Of a DNA stretch of 64,000 bases, positions 6,281-7,166 are shown one piece after another. Source of the stretch: Escherichia coli (lineage in GTDB: Bacteria > Pseudomonadota > Gammaproteobacteria > Enterobacterales > Enterobacteriaceae); the NCBI RefSeq assembly GCF_003334785.1, contig NZ_QOWV01000001.1. One strand, given 5' to 3'. Position numbers and translations under genes: made by a program. The notes beneath the pieces are model-generated. The model saw only the letters and a list, made by a program, of their open reading frames with translations. It did not search any database and was not told the origin of the DNA. Each line of letters starts with the position of its first letter. The stretch's first letter is position 1.

Positions 6281-6903
6281 CCCGGTGTGTGCAATATACG
6301 AAAAAAAAGCCCGTACTTTCGTACGAGCTCTTCTTTAAATATGGCGGTGAGGGGGGGATTGACTCGCTTCGCTCGCCCTGCGGGCAGCCCGCTCACTGCG
6401 TTCACGGTCTGTCCAACTGGCTGTCGCCAGTTGTCGAACCCCGGTCGGGGCTTCTCATCCCCCCGGTGTGTGCAATATACGAAAAAAAAGCCCGTACTTT
6501 CGTACGAGCTCTTCTTTAAATATGGCGGTGAGGGGGGGATTGACTCGCTTCGCTCGCCCTGCGGGCAGCCCGCTCACTGCGTTCACGGTCTGTCCAACTG
6601 GCTGTCGCCAGTTGTCGAACCCCGGTCGGGGCTTCTCATCCCCCCGGTGTGTGCAATATACGAAAAAAAAGCCCGTACTTTCGTACGAGCTCTTCTTTAA
6701 ATATGGCGGTGAGGGGGGGATTGACTCGCTTCGCTCGCCCTGCGGGCAGCCCGCTCACTGCGTTCACGGTCTGTCCAACTGGCTGTCGCCAGTTGTCGAA
6801 CCCCGGTCGGGGCTTCTCATCCCCCCGGTGTGTGCAATATACGAAAAAAAAGCCCGTACTTTCGTACGAGCTCTTCTTTAAATATGGCGGTGAGGGGGGG
6901 ATT
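6281..6903. repeat. Tandem direct repeat array: three perfect 181-bp units (starts 6281, 6462, 6643) plus a fourth partial unit running into the serX 3' end
   Basis: Identical text recurs with 181-bp period; each unit holds a copy of the last 19 nt of serX (plus strand tggcggtgagggggggatt) and the adjacent hairpin plus A/T-run terminator. Confidence 0.95.
6843..6876 (-). terminator. Rho-independent terminator immediately downstream of serX (copied in each repeat unit)
   Basis: On the tRNA strand: short spacer after CCA, hairpin (gctcgtac gaaa gtacgggc), then a run of 8 T. Confidence 0.75.
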
Positions 6904-6972
6904 CGAACCCCCGATACGTTGCCGTATACACACTTTCCAGGCGTGCTCCTTCAGCCACTCGGACACCTCACC
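6885..6972 (-). tRNA. serX: tRNA-Ser (long variable arm, 88 nt, CCA encoded)
   Basis: Reverse complement reads GGTGAGGTGTCCGAGTGGCTGAAGGAGCACGCCTGGAAAGTGTGTATACGGCAACGTATCGGGGGTTCGAATCCCCCCCTCACCGCCA; GGTTCGAATCC T-arm and GGA anticodon loop context. Confidence 0.93.
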
Positions 6973-7166
6973 AAATTGTCGTTCCTGTCTTGCTGGAACG
7001 GGCGCTAATTTAGGGAAATCATGACCTGAGGTCAACAAACTTTTTGAAAAAATCGCGCGTTTATTCAAACTTCAATCAATGTGTGGTTTTAATAAGCGAA
7101 ATCTGCTTTTTTTGCCACCGACCACGGATTTGTTATGCTGGTGGCCTTTGTAGATCATAATGATAA

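Follow-up and report, generated by a model that had tools for sequence, protein, structure and literature searches.

Tandem RtT elements behind the tRNA-Ser(GGA) gene serX vary in copy number among Escherichia coli genomes

The window analyzed here is a stretch of 64,000 nucleotides (nt) of Escherichia coli DNA (NCBI RefSeq assembly GCF_003334785.1, contig NZ_QOWV01000001.1). Directly downstream of the transfer RNA (tRNA) gene serX, and on the same strand, it contains a perfect tandem repeat with a period of 181 bp. Judged by sequence comparison, the units of this repeat are RtT elements (Rfam RF00391), and their core is homologous to that of the well-known repeats at tyrT. The best explanation of the locus, with a probability of about 0.8, is a variable-number tandem array of RtT elements, in which units would be gained and lost by recombination or slippage, and from which a read-through RNA would be processed to a CCA end. 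The array is thus a real, ordinary and already annotated member of a known, poorly understood family.

Tandem Repeats Finder (TRF) reported one array at 6281-6903 (period 181, 3.4 copies, 100% matches, 0% indels, score 1246), equivalent to 3.44 perfect copies of the 181-bp unit, and a unit-by-unit comparison of the full units gave zero differences. The perfect repeat is 623 bp long, so a chance origin can be ruled out. The initial annotation had described three identical units starting at 6281, 6462 and 6643, with a fourth, partial unit entering serX. TRF and the reading of the sequence bear out the three units, and the partial unit was located as 80 bp at 6824-6903, so the array ends at 6903, one base short of the 6904 given earlier. 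As also described earlier, every unit carries the last 19 nt of tRNA-Ser: the plus-strand 19-mer tggcggtgagggggggatt begins at 6342, 6523, 6704 and 6885, which makes four copies of the tRNA 3′ end, and on the minus strand each 181-bp unit ends with AAUCCCCCCCUCACCGCCA, the last 19 nt of serX. The terminator noted beside each of these copies consists of GCUCGUAC-GAAA-GUACGGGC followed by U8 on the minus strand, with a 16-bp hairpin predicted in the minimum free energy (MFE) fold; the site directly after serX was also flagged by a terminator scan. In the direction of serX, a unit is composed of this intrinsic terminator followed by an RtT module of ∼137 nt, and the first RtT starts ∼45 nt past the serX 3′ end (Table 1). 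The distal end of the repeat, at 6281, falls just short of the expected start of the next RtT 5′ arm. Since the repeat itself includes the 80 bp made up of the tRNA 3′ end, the terminator and a short spacer, the number of units can rise or fall while the gene stays undamaged.

Table 1. Positions of serX, the tandem array and its components in the window
Feature	Position	Strand	Evidence or remark
serX, tRNA-Ser(GGA)	6885..6972	-	ARAGORN; Rfam tRNA model, 53.8 bits; last 19 nt (6885-6903) are also the proximal end of the repeat
Whole tandem array	6281..6903	-	TRF, sequence, unit comparison
Full units (plus-strand register)	6281-6461, 6462-6642, 6643-6823		181 bp each
Partial unit, 80 bp	6824-6903		holds the genuine 3′ end of the tRNA and terminator copy 1
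Terminator-like hairpin + U8, copy 1 of 4, directly after serX	6844..6879	-	sequence, MFE fold, terminator scan
RtT module 1	6704..6840	-	RF00391, 46.3 bits, E=3e-07; 3′ 19 nt (6704-6722) match the serX 3′ end and finish with CCA
Terminator-like hairpin + U8, copy 2	6663..6698	-	identical to copy 1, offset 181
RtT module 2	6523..6659	-	RF00391, 46.3 bits; tRNA 3′-end copy 6523-6541
Terminator-like hairpin + U8, copy 3	6482..6517	-	identical repeat
RtT module 3	6342..6478	-	RF00391, 46.3 bits; tRNA 3′-end copy 6342-6360
Terminator-like hairpin + U8, copy 4 (distal)	6301..6336	-	sequence

The RtT family was defined on the 178-bp repeats behind tyrT. Its Rfam model matches each of the three serX units on the minus strand over its full length, with 46.3 bits against a gathering score of 45. 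The tyrT locus of K-12 holds 3.1 copies of its 178-bp unit and four RtT matches (133-137 bits), of which one lies between tyrT and tyrV. When serX and tyrT units are aligned, a common core becomes apparent, which comprises GGATGAGAAGC, CGACC, GGTTCGAC, the GCCCG-loop-GGGCGA hairpin region, AATCC, and the tRNA-derived 3′ end; in direct alignment, the 45-60 nt past the CCA are unrelated. The single-stranded motifs UGAGAA and GGUUCG are invariant across Tyr-, Ser- and Arg-linked copies. The likeness to tyrT remarked on in the initial annotation therefore extends to homology, as both the RF00391 match and the core alignment indicate. Whether the array had been described for serX was left open there, and the answer has two parts. 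In the RefSeq/PGAP annotation of E. coli genomes, one of which matches the window at 100%, the units at this locus already carry the label ‘RtT sRNA’, and the curated K-12 record NC_000913.3 has nothing annotated between ycdU and serX. A search of the accessible literature found no paper that discusses the serX array, nor any discussion of the systematic terminator ahead of Ser-linked RtTs, the covariation of four segments with the host tRNA, the breadth of hosts and taxa, or a 0-4 polymorphism at serX; these four aspects may be new. Other Rfam matches at the window (sX4, MicC, Thr-leader and plastid models) lie far below their thresholds and were rejected. The match to sX4, a small RNA of Xanthomonas, lies at 6815-6983 (minus strand), scores 34 bits where the gathering score is 70, and covers only the tRNA-Ser and the first RtT bases; the model itself spans a tRNA-Ser and a downstream GGGGGG-UGAGA. 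This hints that sX4 could be a tRNA-Ser read-through transcript that reaches into an RtT-like module.

Copy number was analyzed by using only the two flanks of the array, 800 bp each, as queries against 5,426 complete E. coli genomes. In 2,062 genomes the two flanks were no more than 1.3 kb apart, and units were counted in an evenly spaced systematic sample of the matches (60 rows per search). The sampled genomes contained zero (n=5), one (n=8), two (n=5), three (n=2) or four (n=3) full units. This range of 0-4 was observed between flanks that are ≥98.5% identical, and in its entirety even where the flanks are ≥99.9% identical to the window. The suggestion that copy number differs between strains is thereby confirmed for complete genomes with conserved flanks, and relatives do not all share one copy number. 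In nine alleles that were walked unit by unit, serX, its terminator and the distal junction ...GCACACACCGG|GTGCCCCC are identical. Variation extends into the K-12 lineage. The reference MG1655 sequence (NC_000913.3, 1095500-1098500) has three full units, two of them identical and the distal one a variant (A45G, T85G); two other MG1655 assemblies have four, i.e. three identical units and the same A45G/T85G variant. The window, with three identical units and no A45G/T85G variant, represents a third allele of this lineage. The discrepancy reflects either true differences between K-12 stocks or the collapse of one unit in the reference. For the majority of the other genomes, the flanks were not joined, and the cases examined show insertion of an island at serX or loss of ycdU. 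In strain AVS0787, which has no ycdU, a truncated and degenerate RtT 5′ part (GGGGGGATGAGAAGCCCCAGGCGGAGGTTGACAACTAGCGACAG) is joined to the 3′ end of dgcT, ∼45-105 nt downstream of serX. This deletion remnant suggests that serX already had an RtT element before these lineages diverged. Strain SCPM-O-B-8794 has two RtT 5′ motifs just 106 nt apart downstream of tRNA-Ser, an arrangement that suggests a partial internal duplication or a deletion within a unit.

Perfect repeats longer than short reads are often misassembled, and the K-12 records disagree (three versus four units), so an assembly artefact was considered. However, the array is present in hundreds of complete genomes, the alleles differ by exact multiples of 181 bp across many of them, and one complete genome matches the allele of the window at 100%; the array is almost certainly not an artefact. 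The repeats also contain two identical open reading frames (ORFs) of 137 codons on the plus strand (6287-6700 and 6468-6881), offset by exactly one unit and starting with GTG, and the tyrT repeats carry an annotated tpr ORF. It could thus be asked whether these 137-aa products, or a small peptide similar to tpr, are the functional output of the locus. As the period of 181 is not a multiple of three, the frame in which an ORF reads the repeat changes from one unit to the next. The ORFs exist only through repetition and disappear in alleles with zero or one copy, and RefSeq annotates no coding sequence between ycdU and serX. These features, together with the GTG start and the one-unit offset, confirm the earlier view of the ORFs as repeat artefacts and make a protein-coding role extremely unlikely.

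The initial annotation had also raised the possibility of stacked attachment-site scars, in which each unit would be the remnant of a separate integration into the 3′ end of serX. The gene is indeed an integration hot spot, at which islands with a P4-type integrase have inserted in O157 and other strains, with duplication of the tRNA 3′ end (PMC3064760). At the serX island junctions of O157 and another strain, an integrase lies beside ycdU together with a 14-bp direct repeat, in agreement with TGGCGGTGAGGGGG, the published direct repeat of OI-43/48 and SRL-PAI (PMC3064760). The genuine scar is therefore 14 bp long (CCCCCTCACCGCCA), as opposed to the 19 nt repeated here (PMC3064760), and adjoins an integrase, whereas no integrase is found between ycdU and ghrA in the allele of the window. 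In the O157 strain examined, the 14-bp scar is located ahead of the terminator and there are zero RtT units. Furthermore, the identity of the units is expected of duplication and not of independent events, and their core belongs to a conserved structured family that occurs at tyrT with the same break position in the T-loop. The idea of stacked scars was thus rejected as very unlikely.

In the RtT module, the 5′ arm GGGGGGAU pairs with the 3′ arm AUCCCCCC to form a closing helix, which encloses the GAAGCCCC/GGGGUUC hairpin and further hairpins. An RNAalifold analysis of a mixed alignment of Ser-, Tyr- and other-linked copies recovered two helices, the closing helix and the GAA-G-CNN / NNG-G-UUC hairpin, and in both of them G-C pairs change to A-U in step with the type of host tRNA. 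For 30 Ser(GGA)-linked modules from different genera, the same program gave 34 pairs in six helices, and pair counting showed that 97.9% of cells are paired. Double compensatory changes were present in 12 pairs, compared with 4.8 in shuffled alignments, and none of 500 shuffles reached the observed value. Control alignments with the pairing partners slid by 1-3 columns gave 2-4 pairs with changes on both sides versus the 12 observed. One G-U pair is invariant in the Ser(GGA)-linked modules. Since the opposite strand would have an A-C mismatch at this position, the invariant pair points to the tRNA strand as the structured strand. The fold of the E. coli unit has a z-score of −5.1 and consists of the terminator hairpin and a closed RtT with multiple hairpins, leaving a single-stranded tail of 10 nt (...CUCACCGCCA). 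The fold of the tyrT unit has the closing helix and the second hairpin as in serX.

Occurrence beyond E. coli was surveyed by scanning one genome per species for the motif GGRTGAGAASCNNCGACNNNGGTTCG, which gave at least 120 loci; the choice of motif biases the resulting picture of host types. The matches listed are mostly from Enterobacterales, with a few from Pseudoalteromonas, one from Stenotrophomonas and one from a metagenome-assembled genome (MAG) of Paenibacillaceae. In nearly all listed loci with a tRNA inside the fetched stretch, the first copy of the motif begins 57-74 nt after the upstream tRNA. The hosts among these matches are tRNA-Tyr(GTA), tRNA-Ser(GGA) and tRNA-Ser(GCT), with tRNA-Ser(CGA) and tRNA-Arg(TCT) found once each. 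The 3′ 19-mer of an RtT corresponds to the 3′ end of its own host tRNA, down to species variants such as CCTTCTCCC in Pantoea and CCCCCGCC in Buttiauxella. Three further segments, i.e. the 5′ arm, the second segment and the third segment, track the T-stem of the host. They read GGGGAAGG, CTTCG and YAAGG with Tyr hosts, GGGGGG, CCCCG and CGGGG with Ser-GGA hosts, and GAAGGNGG, CCTCG and YAGGG with Ser-GCT hosts, and the 5′ arm follows species-specific tRNA variants as well. Ser(GGA)-linked RtTs occur in Citrobacter, Enterobacter, E. albertii, Salmonella arizonae, Klebsiella, Pantoea and others, and arrays of two or three Ser-linked units in Citrobacter, E. albertii, Phytobacter, Atlantibacter, Franconibacter and others. 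Identity between units is mostly 93-100% within an array versus roughly 75-91% between genera, which on this comparison is a signature of concerted evolution or of repeated recent duplication. This lends support to the recent amplification or gene conversion proposed in the initial annotation.

Several further observations were made in the course of this survey. The RtT-like modules outside Enterobacterales (five loci in Pseudoalteromonas, one in Stenotrophomonas, one in the Paenibacillaceae MAG) follow tRNA-Ser(GCT), tRNA-Ser(CGA) or tRNA-Arg(TCT), and their 5′ arm is again complementary to the 3′ strand of the host tRNA. Almost all hosts are tRNAs with a long variable arm (Tyr, Ser), a result biased by the search motif. 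At four loci with Ser-linked arrays, from several genera, the final RtT copy is incomplete and stops after the GCCCG in its third hairpin, and in three of them the conserved hairpin ACAAAAACGCCGGGAGCGTTTTT, or a close variant, takes the place of the tRNA 3′-end copy; these distal copies may be a clue to the ancestral single-copy state. Tyr-linked RtTs of typical enterobacterial sequence were also found in assemblies labelled Martelella alba (an alphaproteobacterium) and Chryseobacterium sp. (Bacteroidota), which are probably contaminated or mislabelled. Within K-12, serW, an identical paralogue of serX (NC_000913.3, 924800-927000), has a near-identical terminator and no RtT. Its trailer runs into the remnant of a CRISPR direct repeat, located between clpA and serW (Rfam CRISPR-DR4, 50 bits).

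The terminators distinguish the Ser-linked loci. The spacers of Ser(GGA)-linked copies keep the hairpin and T-run though the sequences of their stems differ. Among the matches listed, no terminator precedes the first Tyr-linked copy (0/58), and the tyrT repeats of K-12 are also without one. An alternative is a fail-safe stack, in which four terminators in tandem, possibly active in both directions, would insulate ycdU and serX, two convergent genes, and the RtT cores would be mere spacers. The four hairpins are strong and lie between an A-tract and a U-tract, they were flagged on the plus strand too, and ycdU does converge on the array. Such a function would leave unexplained the conserved RtT core with its covariation and the arrays of the tyrT type that lack terminators, and alleles with a single terminator are common. 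Terminator stacking is therefore a quite improbable reason for the existence of the array.

Several results weigh against a functional array of RtT elements expressed by read-through. A terminator-like hairpin with a T-run lies ahead of the first RtT in 46 of the 51 Ser- or Arg-linked loci listed (Ser-GGA 39/44, Ser-GCT 5/5, Ser-CGA 1/1, Arg 1/1), and a promoter scan found no promoter-like site inside the serX units. With a terminator ahead and no internal promoter, expression of the serX RtTs would depend on read-through. Zero-unit alleles and strains with only a truncated remnant are common in E. coli, so RtT at serX is dispensable. The RF00391 score is barely over the threshold, and the K-12 unit with two substitutions drops to 36.1 bits. 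As for the structure, the covariation of the outer two helices tracks the type of host tRNA and thus reflects few independent events, and the changes in these helices would equally allow the alternative pairing A:B and C:D of the four segments instead of A:D and B:C; independent support for the structure comes from the internal hairpins.

The same results can be read as signs of a neutral minisatellite, that is, non-functional DNA kept and varied solely by recombination of identical repeats, with no RNA of meaningful amount or role. The terminators that precede the units, the lack of promoters found within them, and the frequency of zero-copy alleles and truncated remnants in E. coli would all fit, as would the fact that the function of RtT has been called unknown since 1991 (PMC7542023). 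However, the structure is conserved across many genera, with its 12 compensatory pairs far above the shuffled and slid controls. Moreover, the invariance of UGAGAA and GGUUCG, and a 5′ arm that tracks tRNA variants, are not expected of a neutral relic. For E. coli, with its common zero-copy alleles, a neutral minisatellite is thus possible but doubtful.

The preferred explanation, a variable-number array of RtT elements, can be formulated as follows. The number of units would change by unequal homologous recombination or replication slippage between identical units. A polymerase that reads through the terminator would transcribe RtT, and the transcript would fold into the conserved closed structure. 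It may then be trimmed by the tRNA-processing machinery to an RNA that ends with CCA, by analogy with the rtT RNA of tyrT. The latter was reportedly characterized by Bosl & Kersten in 1991 as a processed product freed from the tRNA transcript. Unequal crossing-over at a shared GGGGTTCGA motif was considered as the origin of the unit and dropped, because a simple model failed to reproduce the unit structure. Regarding function, a possible link to the amino-acid starvation response has been mentioned with reference to Bosl & Kersten 1991, and modulation of this response is the only published suggestion on the role of RtT, which is otherwise called unknown (PMC7542023). The anatomy of RtT would fit a mimic of uncharged tRNA or a processing decoy. 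A more far-reaching proposal, which we put forward tentatively and consider unlikely, is that RtT constitutes a widespread class of modules linked to tRNA 3′ ends, with four segments that co-evolve with the T-arm and acceptor strand of the host and, in all hosts other than Tyr, with an intrinsic terminator ahead of it, and that it acts as a functional tRNA mimic made only when a terminator is read through, its dose tuned by copy number. Posing as uncharged tRNA, such an RNA could be a decoy for RelA, for the ribosome or for processing enzymes; alternatively, it could provide an RNase P entry site that rescues read-through pre-tRNA.

For annotation, the serX array should be treated as an RtT repeat, neither as genes nor as a scar, and the 137-aa ORFs ignored. 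The fast change in copy number (0-4 units, three alleles in the K-12 lineage alone) makes the locus treacherous for short-read assembly, and potentially useful as a typing marker. The locus also demonstrates that the RtT family reaches tRNA-Ser, with a structure that tracks the host tRNA, and the placement of the Ser type behind a terminator, combined with this tracking, offers a testable handle on how RtT acts. Elsewhere in the window, upstream of ycdU, an IS3 element abuts a truncated pseudogene of acyl carrier protein (ACP) S-malonyltransferase (ymdE), as in K-12, an assignment made by identity to the related locus.

The closest known system is the tyrT/tyrV RtT of K-12 (rttR, RF00391, 178 bp × 3.1). 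At both loci, tandem units of ∼180 bp directly follow the 3′ end of a tRNA on the same strand, and the final 19 nt of every unit are those of the host tRNA, with the break at an identical T-loop position (UUCG|AAUCC). A UGAGAA motif and a GAAGCNN...NNGGUUC hairpin are common to the two homologous cores, and so is a closing helix in which the 5′ arm pairs with the 3′ arm derived from the tRNA. In contrast to tyrT, the host at serX is tRNA-Ser(GGA), and the helices are GGGGGG/CCCCCC where tyrT has GGAAGG/CCUUCC. The spacer after the CCA is non-homologous and contains an intrinsic terminator that the Tyr type lacks, the middle hairpins are longer, and the units are 100% identical (95% at tyrT), with Rfam scores of 46 versus ∼135 bits. 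An RNA product has been reported for the tyrT RtT and is predicted for the serX RtT. The islands of the P4 integrase family at serX and serW (OI-48, OI-43, SRL-PAI) use the same tRNA gene and likewise duplicate its 3′ end, but their 14-bp repeat flanks tens of kb that include an integrase, and it has no RtT core. A third point of comparison is 3′ETS-leuZ, a tRNA 3′ external transcribed spacer that acts as an RNA in its own right. Trailers of this type resemble RtT in that an RNA from the trailer of the tRNA transcript is set free during processing of the tRNA; RtT differs in being repeated, in containing the tRNA 3′ end as a copy and, in the case of serX, in lying behind a terminator, and we know of no sponge or target activity of RtT. 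Finally, the array resembles bacterial variable-number tandem repeat (VNTR) or minisatellite loci, in that a unit of ∼0.2 kb is perfectly repeated and polymorphic in copy number between close strains. Unlike an anonymous VNTR, however, the serX unit belongs to a conserved structured-RNA family that is tied to a tRNA gene.

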